A stretch of DNA of 64,000 bases. Origin: Escherichia phage vB_EcoM_G2133. The position numbers and the translations under genes are program-made. The stretch's first letter is position 1. Every line of letters starts with the position of its first letter. The notes beneath the pieces were generated by a model. The model saw only the letters and a program-made list of their open reading frames with translations, was not told where the DNA came from and did not search any database. The stretch is taken from sequence record MK327928.1; one strand, given 5' to 3'. This document shows, piece by piece, positions 2,514 to 38,945 of the stretch.

Positions 2514-4333
2514 TACTGGCTCATCCATTCTTTACGAAGGTCAGCATTATCTCCCATAAGCATTTCAAAAAGCTCTTTCCAATTCTCAGGAAGTTTAACA
2601 ACATCATATACTGGGTTTTGAATCATCTCACGATATTCAGATTTTTCCAAAGAGCCAAGTCCTTTAATATAACGGATGCTATGTTTAGGTAGAGCATCTT
2701 TGGCACTCTCATATTCAGCGACTGTATAAAACCATTCTTGTTTTTTACCGACCTGAGCGATGATTACAGGAGTTTTGACAAAGCGAATTCGTCCTTGTTC
2801 AAATAGTTCTGGCCAATTACTAAAAAATCCGAGCAGAGAAGGATAAATGCTTCCTAGACCATCATGGTCAGCATCAGTCATAATAGCAATATTGCGATAA
2901 TTCAAGTTTTCAGCTTTTTCACCAAGAACTAGACCAGTGATTGCGCAAATATCAAATAGTTCTTTGTTTTTAAGCATATCAGCATATGACATACCCCAAC
3001 TGTTGAGAACTTTACCACGTAATGGATAACCACCATGAAGTTCTTTATCACGAACATCAATAAGATAGCCGATAGCAGAATCACCCTCAGTCAAGAAAAG
3101 AGTAGTATCAGCATCTTTACCGCAAAGATTCGCTTTAATATGTTTATGAACCTTAGCTTTAGAAGCCTTTTTAGCTGCTTTAGTTTCTGCTGCTTTTTCT
3201 GCCGCCAATTTACGAGCCAAAGCAGCTTCAATAATCGGCATTAGAATTGCTTCATTATTTAGAATAGCGCGTGAAATCTTTTTAGCATCAAGCTGAATAT
3301 GACTACGAATTTCGCCAAATGGAGAAGTCAAACACTCTTTAGTTTGAGAATCAAATCGCATGTTTTTCATATCACGAACAAACATAACGATAATCAAACA
3401 TTCTTTGACACGCGCTTTAGTTACATCAATTTTGAACTTACGTTTGATTTGTGGAATAAGGTCTTCACAAATATCATCCATAACACAATCAATGTGATGG
3501 CCACCATTCTTAGTGTGAATGTTATTCACATAAGTTAATTGACGAAAACCATCCGGTGAACGACCAACCGCAATAGAACAATTTTCTTGCTCTTGGACGA
3601 TAGCATGCTCATCATATTGGCGTGCATATTTCTTAAAATTGCCCTGAACCTTTTTACCATTAAAGGTAAATTGAATATCAGGATAAACAACAGCAAGTGT
3701 CTGGAGACGATCCAGTGTAATGTCAAGATAAACTTGGGACAGCTCATTAGTTTCAAATGACATAAAATCAGGAATGAAAGTAACACGAGTTCCTTTCCAT
3801 TTTCCAGGAATATCTTCCCATGATTTATTTTCCATGCCATTTGAACAACGAACTACAATATTATTTTGACCATCACCAGTTTCACCGACAAACATCACAG
3901 AAAAAATGTTTGTCAAACTAGAACCAACACCGTTCATACCACCAGTGACGCGTTCTTTATCATCACCAAAGTTACCACCTGCTTTTGGAATAGTCCAGGC
4001 AGCAACTGGACCAGGAATTTCTTCACCGGTAGGTGTTTTAACCATCGCCTGTGGAATACCACGACCGTTATCTTCAACTGTTACTTGATTGTTTTTAATA
4101 GTAACATTAATTTTATTTGCGAATTTAAACTTAGTACGAATACCTTCATCTACTGAGTTATCGATAATTTCATCAATAAGCTTAACAAGACCAGGTACAT
4201 ACTGAACACTTTCCCATTTACCAAACAGAAAGCGCTCATGCATTTCATTAGCAGAAGAGCCAATGTACATGCCACTACGCTTTTTGATATGTTCAATATC
4301 GCTCAGAATTTTAATTTCATTCTTAATCATCAC
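2513..4333 (-). CDS. 39: DNA topoisomerase II large subunit gp39 (ATPase plus Toprim), uninterrupted
   Basis: 606-aa ORF; N-terminus MIKNEIKILSDIEHIKKRSGMYIGS; Toprim LTEGDSA; DNGRGIP ATPase motif. Confidence 0.85.
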   Translation of the reverse strand: MMIKNEIKILSDIEHIKKRSGMYIGSSANEMHERFLFGKWESVQYVPGLVKLIDEIIDNSVDEGIRTKFKFANKINVTIKNNQVTVEDNGRGIPQAMVKTPTGEEIPGPVAAWTIPKAGGNFGDDKERVTGGMNGVGSSLTNIFSVMFVGETGDGQNNIVVRCSNGMENKSWEDIPGKWKGTRVTFIPDFMSFETNELSQVYLDITLDRLQTLAVVYPDIQFTFNGKKVQGNFKKYARQYDEHAIVQEQENCSIAVGRSPDGFRQLTYVNNIHTKNGGHHIDCVMDDICEDLIPQIKRKFKIDVTKARVKECLIIVMFVRDMKNMRFDSQTKECLTSPFGEIRSHIQLDAKKISRAILNNEAILMPIIEAALARKLAAEKAAETKAAKKASKAKVHKHIKANLCGKDADTTLFLTEGDSAIGYLIDVRDKELHGGYPLRGKVLNSWGMSYADMLKNKELFDICAITGLVLGEKAENLNYRNIAIMTDADHDGLGSIYPSLLGFFSNWPELFEQGRIRFVKTPVIIAQVGKKQEWFYTVAEYESAKDALPKHSIRYIKGLGSLEKSEYREMIQNPVYDVVKLPENWKELFEMLMGDNADLRKEWMSQ

Positions 4334-34473: not shown

Positions 34474-34708
34474 CCTTAATACAAGATACAGCCATATCTC
34501 GTAATGATTTAGGCGTGTCATTATCTAAAATGTTGAAGTTAAAAGATACAGCCCAATCAGTGCAGACTGTAACCTTTTTAATATAATTATCTTCAACCTC
34601 TAGTGGTTCAAACCAGTATTCAATAATTTCTTTATGACCAATATCATCTTTTACTTCGCATTCAAAATGCTGACTCATCATAACATTTTTAAATTCATCA
34701 AAAGTCAT
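34445..34708 (-). CDS. hypothetical protein
   Basis: 87-aa ORF immediately downstream of gene 47. Confidence 0.45.
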   Translation of the reverse strand: MTFDEFKNVMMSQHFECEVKDDIGHKEIIEYWFEPLEVEDNYIKKVTVCTDWAVSFNFNILDNDTPKSLRDMAVSCIKDAYCEVFDI

Positions 34709-35724
34709 TGTGTTGCCTCTACATATAACTGATTTGCATATTGAATAAGTGCTTCACGGTCAGAATCAGTGATGTCTGGAATTGCATTAATGTATTCTTC
34801 CATCAATGTCTGAAGCGATTGAACTTCAACTTCTTCACTGTTATCTGACTCGACAGAGTTATCAATCTTTGACACAACTCGTAATGAATGCACAACTTTT
34901 TCTAGTTCAGATTCGAACTTCGTCAGATTTTTGTCTACTTCAGTTACTATAACACGTACTGATAGATTTGTAAAATCTTTATAGTCAATTTTTCCTTTAA
35001 ATGGATAATGAATTCTACGATGCCAGGTAGTATTGTTTGGAATAAATTCCATTCGTTCTGTTTCTGTATCAAACATCCAGAACCCGCGAGGGTCATTCTC
35101 GTCACCTGCTGTTAGTGTCCATGGTGTCCCAATATATCTGACGTTAGCAGCCTCAGAAATAGTATGGAAGTGACCAGACCACACTTCTTTATAAGTCTTA
35201 AGGAAATCAGGTTCAAGACCATGAGATTTCATTCCTTTATAAAAATAAAATCCATTCAGTTCCCAGTGACCAACACAAAAAGAAGCAGATGAAGTTTTGA
35301 TGTGCTCAAGAATTTCACCAGTATTTTCTTCGCACATCCAAGGAATCAAATCAATCAAACACCCGTCAAAATCTACTGTAGTAGGCTTATCATATACTTT
35401 AACATTAGGATATTTAGCCAAAAGCTCAGTAGAAGCATTTGGAGTTAAAGTATTTTTAAAGTGCATATCATGGTTTCCTACAACAGTATGTAGGGTAATA
35501 CCAGCATCATCAAGCATTTGAACTATTTCACGAGCGAACTCCATAGTTTTATGCGTGATTGCTTTTCGCACATCAAAAATATCGCCGTATTGAATCCATG
35601 TAGTAATTTCATTTTTCTTAGAATATTCTATGGCTTGTTTAATTCCATCCAACTGAATGGATTGAACCCACTCATCATCGGCTTTAACGCCTAAATGCCA
35701 ATCACCTAAATTTAAAATTTTCAT
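34705..35724 (-). CDS. 47: recombination nuclease subunit gp47 (Mre11/SbcD-like)
   Basis: 339 aa; phosphoesterase motifs LGDWHLG, GDIFD, GNHD. Confidence 0.85.
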   Translation of the reverse strand: MKILNLGDWHLGVKADDEWVQSIQLDGIKQAIEYSKKNEITTWIQYGDIFDVRKAITHKTMEFAREIVQMLDDAGITLHTVVGNHDMHFKNTLTPNASTELLAKYPNVKVYDKPTTVDFDGCLIDLIPWMCEENTGEILEHIKTSSASFCVGHWELNGFYFYKGMKSHGLEPDFLKTYKEVWSGHFHTISEAANVRYIGTPWTLTAGDENDPRGFWMFDTETERMEFIPNNTTWHRRIHYPFKGKIDYKDFTNLSVRVIVTEVDKNLTKFESELEKVVHSLRVVSKIDNSVESDNSEEVEVQSLQTLMEEYINAIPDITDSDREALIQYANQLYVEATQ

Positions 35725-35884: not shown

Positions 35885-35902
35885 AAAGGGCCGAAGCCCT
35901 TT
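35885..35902 (-). terminator. stem-loop aaagggc-cgaa-gcccttt at the alpha-gt stop
   Basis: 7-bp stem, UUCG loop on the minus-strand RNA. Confidence 0.5.
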
Positions 35903-37103
35903 ATTTTGTAATAATGTCAAACTGTTCTTTAAAGCAGAAGCTTGAATCTTGATGTTGATACAAAAATTCATACGCTTTTTCACGTTCGCGGTCATAAAGA
36001 GCTCGGTCAGATGACAGTTCTTTAATACGCTCAAACGTTGATTCCATATCATTTTCATCAAACCAAATGATACCGCTATCATGCGAGGTCAAAGGAGTAT
36101 TATCAACACGGAATTTTAAATTTTCGCCAGTAGATTTCCAAAATACCGGAATTGTTCCACATGCACCAAGCTCGAGATGAGTATATTCTAAAGAACGCTG
36201 TAGATATTTTTTATCCAACTTACTCAGCTGATAACCAAATCCGGATTTACTCATGCGTTCAAGCATTTCGCTATTTACATAACGGTCAAGAATTTGCGTT
36301 GGCAAATTAGGAGCAATTTTAATTTGGTCTACTTGATGAAGACGATAATACTCGTATGGAATTCCTTTTTCTTTAATAGGAATGAACGCTGGAGAACGTT
36401 CCAGACCTTCCATAATAGTACTTAGTCCTGCAGGTTTAAGATGTTTTTCATGAAAATCAAACATCTGATAAAAACCTTTCCATGTAGTCGTACGACCAAT
36501 CCAACGGTTGATATTCATGTTAATTTCAGAAACATCTTTCCAGTAGGTTGATCGAACCTTCGCAATATCCATAGGAGGCTGAAAGTTATATACTGTCGGC
36601 GCTTCTTCAATATCATCAAACAGAGAAACTGTTTCCGGATACCATTCTTTCATCAGAACTTTATTAAAATCGCCATTATCAGAATGGCTAAAAATAACAT
36701 CAGCTCGACGAACAGTTTCTTCTAATCCCAAATTTCGACGCAAAGAAAGAGAAGAATGGTCATGCTGATAAACTACAACACGAACAGAAGGTTTAATGTT
36801 ATCAATAATTTTTTTATAGTTATTAATAGTGTCTTCTTCAACCGAAGTAGCAGGAACTGAATTGATAATTAGAATATCACAATCATTTACCAGCTTAAGT
36901 GTTTTATCGTATTCTTTTGCCAATAAAACCGGAATTGAAAATGATTTATAATCATGCGCGCAATTACGAGTAAATGATTTATCTTTAGCATAAACCAAAG
37001 TCACTTCATGACCATTTTTAATAAACCAATCACGTTGCTCGAGTGAGAATTTAGTTACACCACAACCTTCAAGACCTCGAGCCATAAAAATACATACTTT
37101 CAT
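35901..37103 (-). CDS. agt: DNA alpha-glucosyltransferase
   Basis: 400-aa ORF, MKVCIFMARGLEGCGVTKFSLEQRDWF. Confidence 0.75.
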   Translation of the reverse strand: MKVCIFMARGLEGCGVTKFSLEQRDWFIKNGHEVTLVYAKDKSFTRNCAHDYKSFSIPVLLAKEYDKTLKLVNDCDILIINSVPATSVEEDTINNYKKIIDNIKPSVRVVVYQHDHSSLSLRRNLGLEETVRRADVIFSHSDNGDFNKVLMKEWYPETVSLFDDIEEAPTVYNFQPPMDIAKVRSTYWKDVSEINMNINRWIGRTTTWKGFYQMFDFHEKHLKPAGLSTIMEGLERSPAFIPIKEKGIPYEYYRLHQVDQIKIAPNLPTQILDRYVNSEMLERMSKSGFGYQLSKLDKKYLQRSLEYTHLELGACGTIPVFWKSTGENLKFRVDNTPLTSHDSGIIWFDENDMESTFERIKELSSDRALYDREREKAYEFLYQHQDSSFCFKEQFDIITK

Positions 37104-37153
37104 TTAATATCCTCTTTGTTTTGGTTTATTTTACCAAAAATTTATAAAGCAAT

Positions 37154-37173
37154 ATAGGAGCCGAAGCTCCTAT
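37154..37173 (-). terminator. stem-loop ataggagc-cgaa-gctcctat
   Basis: 8-bp stem, overlaps stop of small ORF 37170..37286. Confidence 0.5.
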
Positions 37174-37286
37174 CCACATAATACGCCATACAGAGGCTCG
37201 TTAGAACTTTTAAATTTTATGCGCTTATATTTTATAGTTCCTTCTGCTTTAGCTTTATCATGAGACTCTTTAAAGCGTCTCATCAT
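37170..37286 (-). CDS. hypothetical basic small protein, 38 aa, not in ORF track
   Basis: MMRRFKESHDKAKAEGTIKYKRIKFKSSNEPLYGVLCG; AAGAGGA ribosome-binding site. Confidence 0.35.
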   Translation of the reverse strand: MMRRFKESHDKAKAEGTIKYKRIKFKSSNEPLYGVLCG

Positions 37287-37346
37287 TTCCTCTTTAGAGG
37301 AACGAATTTTATTATAATCTATTTCAGAAGTCTGGGTGTTCATCTT

Positions 37347-37553
37347 TCATAACTGCCACCATTTTTTGACTTGATAAGAATCAACCCACACTTTCATATT
37401 AGGGTCTGCTCTTACAATAGGAGAATTAACTTCTTTAATTGAACTATCATGGTATTCTTTTTCAGAAATTTTCACACAAAGATGACCATTCAAAGATTCA
37501 GTAAATCCTGCATTAATTTTAAGACGCTTGAATTTTACGTGTGTAAGCATCAA
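37347..37553 (-). CDS. hypothetical small protein
   Basis: 68-aa ORF. Confidence 0.4.
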   Translation of the reverse strand: MMLTHVKFKRLKINAGFTESLNGHLCVKISEKEYHDSSIKEVNSPIVRADPNMKVWVDSYQVKKWWQL

Positions 37554-37836
37554 TCATATCCTCAATCTGCGATCTAGTAGTCTTCCAAAGAATACTGATG
37601 AGTTCATCGTTATATGGCTGTTTTAGAATATCCCGACTTTTCTTGATAGCATATTCGTATTGAGCAAAATTATTATTTTCAGCTGCAATCTGAGCGTGCT
37701 TATAAAGACGATTCAGTTCGCGTTTGTTTTTAGACAATAACTTATTTGCTTTTCTTTCTGCTTCAAGACGGTTCTTTTCTTCAATAGAAGAAATAAGCTT
37801 TTCCACTTCATCATTAATTTCGGGTTTATCAGTCAT
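37519..37836 (-). CDS. hypothetical protein
   Basis: 105-aa ORF. Confidence 0.45.
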   Translation of the reverse strand: MTDKPEINDEVEKLISSIEEKNRLEAERKANKLLSKNKRELNRLYKHAQIAAENNNFAQYEYAIKKSRDILKQPYNDELISILWKTTRSQIEDMIDAYTRKIQAS

Positions 37837-37837
37837 A

Positions 37838-38056
37838 TTATTTCTCTAATATAAAATAAAAATCATCATCTGTTAAATGATACCGATAGTTTAATTCTAC
37901 ACCATTAGATTTAAAAGCGGTATCATACGGATTTTCTGGATCAATATCAATGTCAAGAGCTAAAACTTCCCTGAGATACATTTTAAGTAAATAGGGAATA
38001 GCTTCAACTTCAGGTATTTCTTCCAAGAATCCGGAGAGGTTAATCGTTAGCCTCAT
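37838..38056 (-). CDS. hypothetical small protein
   Basis: 72-aa ORF. Confidence 0.4.
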
Positions 38057-38603
38057 ATAAAAAATCCAAACTAGGAGAATCGTCTACAACACTTTTCTTT
38101 TCAGCCCCCGGTGTTCTATAGGTTGATTCTTCGTAATGCGTCATTTTATCGTAGATGTCTTGAATAAAAGTTTCATCTACTAACGCAACCATATCGTCGT
38201 CACGGCTGTCATAGACATTGTGAACGAAGTAACTATATTTCTTTGCAACTTCCTTACGTTCTTTTTTAATACGTTGGACGAATGCATTAAAACAAGCTTG
38301 AGTTATATACGCATGTGGGTTTTTATATTTCGTTTCATCAAAATTGTGAAGCCCCTTAATAGAAGCTTCTATACCATCTGCAATCATTTCTTGTTTCCAA
38401 GACTGGGTGTATCCTGAAAAGTTGAAACGTTTAGATAAGCCTTCTGCAATAAGCATAATGGCTAATCCGATAGTATCATTCTGACGAACTACTTTATTTG
38501 GGTCTTTATTATTTGCTAATTCTGTTTTCCAATCAATAATAGCTTGTAAAAGCTCTTTATTGTTTACGTAATTATATTTAGGCTTAGTTTCTGACATTTT
38601 CAC
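38040..38603 (-). CDS. 55: late transcription sigma factor gp55
   Basis: 187 aa; [26 protein letters not shown]. Confidence 0.8.
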
Positions 38604-38675: not shown

Positions 38676-38945
38676 TTATCTAAGTAAGCAGTATGCTTGG
38701 AACACTTTCTCCATCATCTTTTTAAATTCATGAATATCTATGTAATGATCATTAATATCAGCGCGATATAAAAAGTCTAAAAACTTTTTATGGGTATTAG
38801 AATATTTACTTCCAGTTAATTCAGAAACATGGCTTTCCCAATATCCAACACCAGTTTTATTTGGGAAAAATGAAATTTTCATGTATTGGTCAACATAGAA
38901 AATACCAAAATTTTCAATAGCAATAGAAATATTAATTAATTTCAT
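38676..38945 (-). CDS. hypothetical protein
   Basis: 89-aa ORF. Confidence 0.4.
   Translation of the reverse strand: MKLINISIAIENFGIFYVDQYMKISFFPNKTGVGYWESHVSELTGSKYSNTHKKFLDFLYRADINDHYIDIHEFKKMMEKVFQAYCLLR

Follow-up and report, generated by a model that had tools for sequence, protein, structure and literature searches.

The 38-codon open reading frame (ORF) to which an earlier note had drawn attention, in the 64,000-nucleotide stretch of Escherichia phage vB_EcoM_G2133 DNA analysed here (record MK327928.1; hereafter 'the window'), amounts to a known gene, wrongly delimited, and to punctuation elements known from T4. When identity, boundaries and anatomy are taken together, this ORF corresponds, with high probability, to the 3' two thirds of a-gt.2. 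It was found where it had been described, in the a-gt.2 frame of the minus strand (37170-37286): from an AUG at 37286-37284, the first codon of an internal Met20-Met21 pair, to a TAG at 37172-37170, it encodes MMRRFKESHDKAKAEGTIKYKRIKFKSSNEPLYGVLCG. The frame does not begin at this AUG, however, but continues upstream without a stop for another 19 codons, as far as an ATG at 37343. The full coding sequence (37170-37343, minus strand) consists of 57 codons plus TAG, and its product is MNTQTSEIDYNKIRSSKEEMMRRFKESHDKAKAEGTIKYKRIKFKSSNEPLYGVLCG. The ORF had been reported as unlisted, but a-gt.2 is already annotated in T4-like phages; the gene, the class of hairpin to which its 3' end belongs, and the promoter are all known elements, described for T4 decades ago.

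The importance of the 38-codon ORF as such therefore goes little beyond annotation hygiene. The analysis nevertheless fixes the likely start of a-gt.2, amid the differing versions found in databases, and it defines a 34-residue core, made of an amphipathic basic helix and a G-T-I-x-Y strand, for a protein family confined to T4-like phages of Enterobacterales.

Identity and setting of a-gt.2

The window belongs to a Tequatrovirus (T4-like) genome. Its positions 36900 to 38100 share 99.9% DNA identity with Tequatrovirus genomes, and 502 phage records span at least 80% of this region. Every gene of the region lies on the minus strand, and four small ORFs separate α-gt (35901-37103) from gene 55 (38040-38603). 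By the RB51 and T4 annotations, these four are a-gt.2, a-gt.3, a-gt.4 and a-gt.5. On the other side of α-gt, the ORF list places 47.1 and then gene 47 (34705-35724), both on the minus strand as well. The order 55, a-gt.5, a-gt.4, a-gt.3, a-gt.2, followed by α-gt or 47, is the same in the window and in RB51, T4, JS98, PEi20, APCEc01, Cronus, Marfa and STML-198; a-gt.2 is the final cistron of this block.

At the homologous position, a-gt.2 is annotated in RB51 (174 nt), in T4 and in JS98. The T4 gene is T4p061 in RefSeq (63 aa, NP_049675; UniProt P13328, Y03F_BPT4), and it is the 'orf C' of a 1985 record, X01804 (Gram & Rüger). The product encoded in the window matches the Pfam family DUF5486 with 135.8 bits, for a cut-off of 27 (E = 4.5e-40), the alignment covering model positions 1-53 of 53 and a-gt.2 residues 5-57. 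A match to phrog_2140 extends over residues 1-57 of 57 (E = 5.5e-38). A Pfam E value of this order places the a-gt.2 ORF far beyond chance. Searches of the main texts of the literature for 'a-gt.2', 'DUF5486' or 'agt.2' returned nothing relevant. The possibility of a gene on the opposite strand was also considered and rejected: the plus strand contains just a 30-aa ORF (37260-37352), of which there is no trace in the conservation pattern.

That the stretch codes for a small basic protein, as had been suggested, was confirmed. The 57-aa product has a mass of 6.7 kDa, a pI of 9.6, and 13 K+R residues versus 8 D+E, and its T4 orthologue is both transcribed and detected by mass spectrometry. The T4 a-gt.2 transcript is classed as early, while the protein (P13328) was detected and classed as late (Wolfram-Schauerte et al. 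2022, PMC9697503 Tables S2 and S3). This detection is sporadic and weak, the LFQ values being low, non-zero in 6 of 24 samples, and well below those of a-gt.3 and a-gt.4 (PMC9697503). In the CRISPRi-ART screen, knock-down of a-gt.2 was scored 'Not Fit' (-1.1, P = 0.93), which corresponds to no fitness effect; a-gt.3, a-gt.4 and a-gt.5 were likewise 'Not Fit', and gene 55 was 'Fit' (PMC11879866 supplement). We conclude from these T4 transcript, protein and knock-down data that a-gt.2 is expressed and that it is dispensable in laboratory E. coli. As to ribosome profiling, which had been proposed as a check, the literature search found no T4 dataset.

Translation start and the internal AAGAGGA site

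Conservation was analysed over residues 9-42 (34 codons) on 27 loci, including that of the window, which reduce to 19 distinct DNA versions. These residues form a gap-free block common to at least seven genera, and the core D-Y-x-K-I-R-x-x-K-x-E-M-M-R-R-F-K-x-x-Y-D-K-A-K-A-E-G-T-I-T-Y-K-K-I could be aligned without gaps with 26 loci and 22 database proteins. By tblastn, matches in Mosigvirus and Dhakavirus span a-gt.2 residues 5-57, and matches in phages of Klebsiella, Erwinia, Salmonella and Edwardsiella span residues 8-42. The pooled pN/pS for the 19 DNA versions was 0.42 over codons 9-19 and 0.30 over codons 20-42, and synonymous variation was seen at the conserved D9, Y10, K12, K17 and E19. 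None of the 26 loci examined beside the window had an in-frame stop upstream of Met20. Conservation in related genomes, the other check that had been proposed, reaches beyond the proposed start. The protein is conserved and under purifying selection from a point 10 to 15 codons upstream of that start, where the predicted helix (residues 10-34) also begins, and initiation at Met20 would halve the helix.

Upstream, the stop codon of a-gt.3 (TGA, 37349-37347) and the ATG of a-gt.2 (37343-37341) are separated by the three nucleotides AAG (37341-37349, minus strand). In Tequatrovirus, the Shine-Dalgarno (SD) sequence belonging to this long-form AUG is weak, with a duplex of -4.9 kcal/mol and poor spacing. 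Because the AUG is only 3 nt away from the a-gt.3 TGA and its own SD is weak, we infer from the sequence that AUG 37343 is probably where translation of a-gt.2 begins, with coupling to a-gt.3 as the main route. In Mosigvirus, Dhakavirus and a further group of loci (L022-L024), the long-form AUG is preceded, at 6 to 9 nt, by a good SD (GAGGTG, AAGAGG or AGAGGA). At codon 4/5, a 1-nt indel distinguishes T4 from the window; the T4 frame is rescued by an upstream ATG or GTG, which lies in the other frame and overlaps the end of a-gt.3, so that translation of the conserved block, from Thr5/Ser6 on, is preserved.

The methionines at which the 38-codon ORF was made to start are not universal: most family members have Met as residue 20 or 21, but one (P0039) has Leu-Leu. 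Almost all a-gt.2 gene calls in public assemblies are of the long form, and the databases carry versions of 37, 57, 59 and 63 aa. A minority of records use the 37-aa form, from Met21 (G2540-3; phrog_20549). The choice of start made in the earlier note repeats, in this respect, an inconsistency that exists among public annotations.

The AAGAGGA motif that had been presented as a strong ribosome-binding site (RBS) is present (37288-37294, minus strand), but the qualification 'strong' could not be retained, as the site is poorly placed, base-paired, and a by-product of lineage-specific codons. It reads AAA-GAG-GAA, for Lys17-Glu18-Glu19. From the end of its GAGG it is 2 nt to the first AUG and 5 nt to the second, and both the MFE fold and a palindrome scan pair this SD look-alike within a 6-bp hairpin, UUCCUC-UAAA-GAGGAA (37287-37302, minus strand, -6.8 kcal/mol). 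Other Tequatrovirus variants, and every other genus, have AAAGTAGAA, AAAGCAGAA or similar sequences where AAGAGGA stands here. Of the 23 family members, 14 carry Val or Ile as residue 18, and only three carry Glu. Around half of the Tequatrovirus clusters at 90% identity read KVE, KAE or KKE at residues 17-19, which means that GAGG is absent from them. Inside the other long ORFs of the window, whose coding interior amounts to some 52.8 kb, GAGG with an ATG 2 to 9 nt later occurs 10 times, 6 of them in frame; the AAGAGGA-AUG site is therefore unremarkable. What looks like a strong internal RBS is an artefact of lineage-specific codons, and the AAGAGGA-AUG-AUG succession is probably a coding by-product of Lys-Glu-Glu-Met-Met, with no dedicated start.

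Two competing explanations of the 38-codon ORF have to be confronted with these data. Initiation at Met20 or Met21 via AAGAGGA might produce a separate isoform of 37 or 38 aa, either alone or beside the 57-aa protein. The duplex of AAGAGGA with the anti-SD reaches -6.0 kcal/mol, 5 nt separate GAGG from the second AUG, the start is used by some deposited annotations and by phrog_20549, and T4 offers precedents for internal starts, such as the annotated one in gene 21. Such an isoform is nonetheless very improbable in our estimation, as GAGG is missing in about half of the Tequatrovirus clusters and in every other genus, residue 18 was ancestrally Val or Ile, and the SD is sequestered by the 6-bp hairpin; the shorter protein would lose half of the conserved helix together with the D-Y-x-K-I motif, and SD-plus-AUG pairs of this kind arise 10 times by chance in the other genes of the window. 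The alternative of a chance open frame in AT-rich DNA, left untranslated, is effectively refuted by the conservation data, and its probability is negligible: the protein is conserved over at least seven genera with a pN/pS of 0.3 to 0.4, which, together with the Pfam family match, the conserved synteny and the detection by proteomics, outweighs the shortness of the ORF, the weak mass-spectrometry signal in T4 and the dispensability of the gene in the laboratory. The reading as the 3' part of a 57-codon a-gt.2 is retained in what follows.

The 3' hairpin and the predicted promoters around it

The ORF had been said to end inside a UUCG hairpin, and this proved to be exact. A C(UUCG)G hairpin, AUAGGAGC-UUCG-GCUCCUAU (37154-37173, minus strand), recovered by folding as well as by a palindrome scan, holds the a-gt.2 stop codon (37172-37170) in its 5' arm. 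It is a G+C-rich, terminator-like stem-loop, with an 8-bp stem, 4 G-C pairs and a predicted energy of -12.6 kcal/mol. A hairpin recurs after every homologue examined, with differing stem sequences. In a loop-centred alignment of 10 lineages, for which the register was chosen by maximising the stem, 93.8% of cells pair, and changes on both sides, that is, compensatory changes, are observed at 6 of the 8 pairs. This covariation was equalled in none of 500 shuffles, and no slid register was as good. The stop codon begins 7 to 9 nt before the loop in 9 of the 10 lineages, and lies within the loop in JS98.

The tail that follows the hairpin in the window (AUUGCUUUAU) passes a lenient terminator scan, its U-tract being interrupted. 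This interruption, found in Tequatrovirus (AUAUUGCUUUAU), is explained by the fact that the tail merges into a MotA box; in Mosigvirus, Dhakavirus and other genera, the stem is followed by 5 to 10 U without a break. The hairpin may serve both as terminator and as 3'-end stabiliser of the transcription unit that would start at Pαgt.4 (see below).

Such punctuation is frequent in the window. CTTCGG occurs 29 times, for 11.75 expected, and 11 C(UUCG)G hairpins with stems of at least 5 bp were counted, 9 of which come right after the end of a minus-strand ORF. With a stop in or beside the stem after nine ORFs of the window, the arrangement seen at a-gt.2 is a generic one for this genome. A MotA-like box 3' of a UUCG hairpin was noted at two sites. 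One of the nine hairpins stands at the end of α-gt itself and is followed by GCTTTA, which is presumably the equivalent of P47.

The MotA box has the consensus (a/t)(a/t)(a/t)TGCTTtA and lies 12±1 bp upstream of a σ70 -10 element, TAtaaT (Hinton 2010, PMC2988021). A search for the MotA-promoter pattern gave 10 matches, for 1.76 expected. Among them is a predicted middle promoter at 37128-37153 on the minus strand, which adjoins the 3' end of the hairpin and agrees with the consensus and its spacing: it is composed of the box ATTGCTTTA (37153-37145), an 11-nt spacer and the -10 element TAAAAT (37133-37128), with a predicted start near 37121. The RBS (GAGGA, 37114-37110) and the start codon (37103-37101) of α-gt come next on the same strand (37101-37114). 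In T4, PmobB, or Pαgt.1, is a MotA/AsiA-dependent middle promoter with a mapped start site at 38682 (PMC2988021). On sequence grounds, the 37128-37153 element is its predicted equivalent and the predicted promoter for α-gt; as the window is devoid of mobB, it stands directly before α-gt.

A second promoter could be placed by identity with T4. Around the mapped Pαgt.4 start site, 39447, the window sequence is identical to that of T4, and the Pαgt.4 equivalent (37887-37920, minus strand) comprises CCGCTTTTA, a 12-nt spacer and TAGAAT, with a start near 37887. Its position upstream would make a-gt.2 the last cistron of a unit formed by a-gt.4, a-gt.3 and a-gt.2.

The protein, its possible role and known systems

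A word-indexed homologue search gave only close relatives, and the diversity of the family was explored with an exhaustive HMM search. The family turned out to be tiny: of 1.84 billion proteins searched, only 18 representatives were obtained after clustering at 50% identity, and every named phage match infects Enterobacterales. The AF2 model, built on a 23-sequence alignment, has a mean pLDDT of 76.5 and contains a single helix at residues 10-34, with pLDDT above 90. This predicted helix of 25 residues is basic and strongly amphipathic. Its conserved hydrophobic face is made of Y10, I13, M20/21, F24, Y/H28 and the invariant A31; among the near-invariant lysines, K17 falls within this face, and K12, K25 and K30 on its flanks. 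The almost invariant G35-T36-I37-x-Y39 that follows is predicted to be a β-strand. Short-form homologues stop at Y-K-K-I. Those of Tequatrovirus, Mosigvirus and Dhakavirus add a conserved 15-residue tail (F-K-S-S-N-E-P-L-Y-G-V-L-C-G), present in the T4, RB69 and JS98 groups and predicted to complete a β-hairpin. Some homologues also bear an N-terminal CxxC...CxxC extension.

With the AF2 model as query, Foldseek found no match at E < 0.7 in the PDB or in BFVD; the sequence search of the PDB gave insignificant matches only, and nothing meaningful came from the PADLOC and NCBIfam scans. Matches to Cmr1 (E = 0.0027) and to a Type I S subunit (E = 0.042) were discarded as coiled-coil noise.

As a helix and one strand cannot bury the hydrophobic face alone, the model suggests that the a-gt.2 product most likely works by self-association or together with a partner. 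Other small early proteins of T4, namely AsiA, Dmd, Arn and Stp, are precedents for an accessory factor of this kind. Considering these precedents, the restriction of the family to phages of Enterobacterales and the dispensability of the gene in K-12, we give about an even chance to a-gt.2 being a dispensable factor, accessory to the early/middle (pre-replicative) transcription units, that would bind a host protein specific to Enterobacterales. Taken together, the core and the dispensability in laboratory E. coli point to a host-specific accessory role.

Nucleic-acid binding and a leader-peptide function, the two roles that the earlier note had put forward, were weighed against this accessory role. 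In the former case, a-gt.2 would be a small basic nucleic-acid-binding protein, possibly GapR-like, whose oligomeric helix would use its conserved lysines to lie against DNA or RNA. A net charge of +5, the pI of 9.6 and the near-invariant K12, K17, K25 and K30 are in keeping with such a role, as is the CxxC...CxxC extension of some homologues. The PDB search moreover yielded weak matches to GapR/UPF0335 (hmmsearch E = 0.74-0.79), and hhalign against a single GapR sequence gave a probability of 58%, with none of 300 shuffles as good. This match, however, was selected from an insignificant list, its probability went down to 18.8% against the GapR family profile (hhalign), no member among 23 matched Pfam DUF2312 (PF10073) at E values up to 10, and the fold searches were without match. 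The GapR match was therefore rejected as a sign of homology, having been cherry-picked from an insignificant PDB list and being weaker with a better profile. A basic charge being common among small phage proteins, we regard nucleic-acid binding as rather doubtful. A role as attenuator appears more unlikely still. It supposes that a ribosome finishing a-gt.2 occludes the terminator hairpin and increases read-through into α-gt, so that translation would tune downstream transcription. Ribosome footprints reach some 12 to 15 nt 3' of the A site; this, the distance of 7 to 9 nt from stop to loop in 9 of 10 lineages (with the JS98 stop inside the loop) and the covariation of the hairpin are what can be counted for it. 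Yet purifying selection acts on the amino-acid sequence across genera (pN/pS of 0.30-0.42), unlike in classical leader peptides, and a leader peptide is an unlikely main role for this reason; the MFE and centroid folds both keep the terminator hairpin, with no competing anti-terminator pairing; a stop in the stem is generic in the window; and α-gt has its own predicted middle promoter right after the hairpin, so that read-through is not needed. A bolder combination, with a core acting as a minimal oligomeric DNA/RNA-binding module, remotely akin to the DNA-clamping helix of GapR, and a translation-sensitive termination of the Pαgt.4 unit, is highly improbable. If it were true, a-gt.2 would be a tiny nucleoid- or transcript-associated factor of T4-like Enterobacterales phages, and, with the stop inside the terminator stem, translation of a-gt.2 would itself influence where the Pαgt.4 unit is terminated.

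Compared with GapR, a nucleoid-associated protein of Caulobacter (DUF2312, UPF0335), a-gt.2 has a local motif reminiscent of a portion of helix 1, K-x-E-x-M-x-x-(F/I)-K-E-x-(Y/H)-x-x-A-K-x-x-G, but it is without helices 2 and 3, in place of which a β-strand is predicted. With the leader peptides of the trp and his attenuators, it has in common a short ORF ending at or inside a terminator hairpin; it differs from them by a conserved peptide, by the absence of regulatory codon runs and of an anti-terminator fold, and by the downstream gene having a predicted promoter of its own.

The closest counterparts are those of T4 itself. T4 a-gt.2 is an orthologue, with a core about 91 to 95% identical and the same C-terminal tail and hairpin, and it too sits between a-gt.3 and the hairpin/PmobB promoter. 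Its first 4 to 10 residues differ (MVATVKDEHP, versus MNTQ in the window) because of the 1-nt indel. T4 PmobB and the promoter element of the window share a TGCTTTA box, a spacer of 11 or 12 nt and TAAAAT, and the start predicted from the element coincides with the T4 site, 38682. The difference lies downstream: in T4 the homing-endonuclease gene mobB is inserted between this promoter and α-gt, whereas in the window, which has no mobB, the element directly precedes α-gt. Lastly, it was in T4 mRNA that hairpins of the C(UUCG)G type were originally described (Tuerk et al. 1988, recounted in PMC4371310). The hairpin of a-gt.2 shares with them a UUCG loop closed by C:G, a position just after an early-strand cistron and an unusual stability, and is not different from them in any essential respect.

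Variant starts and lengths of a-gt.2

Genomes of the T4 type are set apart from those of the window type by a 1-nt indel in a-gt.2, at codon 4/5 (window 37325-37349; about 3395-3423 in the T4 locus, L028). In the former, the gene starts at an ATG or GTG that overlaps the end of a-gt.3, and the N-terminus reads MVATVKDEHP, whereas in the latter the start is an ATG lying 3 nt past the a-gt.3 stop, with N-terminus MNTQ. Because of this difference, one and the same gene is listed as 37, 57, 59 or 63 aa in public annotations.

A shorter variant, of 42 aa, was found in Escherichia phage FL23 (P0026; homologous to window 37170-37343), where residues 19-33 have been lost by a 45-nt in-frame deletion bounded by two near-repeats, AAAGTAGAA and AAAGCAGAA. 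The conserved helix is thereby mostly taken out, a loss that fits with a dispensable gene.

Other homologues are longer. Those of two Klebsiella-phage loci (L008 1123-1305 and L020 1417-1605) carry about 27 extra amino acids at the N-terminus, and this extension is 40-43% identical to residues 40-69 of the T4 prohead protease gp21 (pairwise E 2e-5 to 3e-5), passing directly into the 'I-D-Y' motif of a-gt.2. The resemblance explains how these small ORFs came to be wrongly labelled 'head maturation protease' (phrog_17354); it may also be a clue to where the family came from. Among the proteins P0036, P0038 and P0041 from the database search, two distant homologues have CxxC...CxxC extensions, possibly zinc ribbons, joined to the core at the N-terminal side. 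A 163-aa protein of this same set matches the family weakly (E 1.6e-4); it contains E-M-x-x-R-R-N-R-E-A-F-x-R-A-x-A-x-G-T-F-A-R-M in three tandem repeats, similar to the a-gt.2 core.

Transcription signals and the gene 55 neighbourhood

The equivalent of Pαgt.4 (37887-37920, minus strand) consists of CCGCTTTTA, 12 nt and TAGAAT, exactly the sequence of the middle promoter mapped in T4. It sits within the a-gt.5 coding region and heads a unit made up of a-gt.4, a-gt.3 and a-gt.2.

CTTCGG is enriched over the whole window (29 occurrences for 11.75 expected). There are eleven C(UUCG)G hairpins with a stem of at least 5 bp; nine of them stand directly 3' of the ends of minus-strand ORFs, whose stop codons are 7-16 nt ahead of the loop. 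Examples on the minus strand are at 35895, 39535, 28361 and 30308. After the first of these, which follows α-gt, GCTTTA occurs again, presumably as the equivalent of P47.

Gene 55 (38040-38603, minus strand) has a GTG start and 187 aa in the mechanical ORF list; in deposited annotations it begins 2 codons further downstream, at an ATG, and measures 558 nt (185 aa). Its 3' end overlaps the start of a-gt.5 by 17 nt. Between genes 55 and 55.1 lies an 89-aa ORF (38676-38945, minus strand). T4 lacks this ORF, while the RB51 annotation has it under the name RB51ncORF071c, with the description 'similar to RB69ORF072c'.

The slot downstream of PmobB

In T4, an inserted HNH homing-endonuclease gene, mobB, separates the PmobB middle promoter from α-gt (L028 2328-3231). 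The window has only a 66-nt intergenic region here (37104-37169), and the PmobB-equivalent promoter therefore adjoins α-gt. In other genera the position is occupied by α-gt, 47.1, 47 or unrelated ORFs; given such varied occupants, the slot after PmobB-type promoters looks like a variable cargo site.
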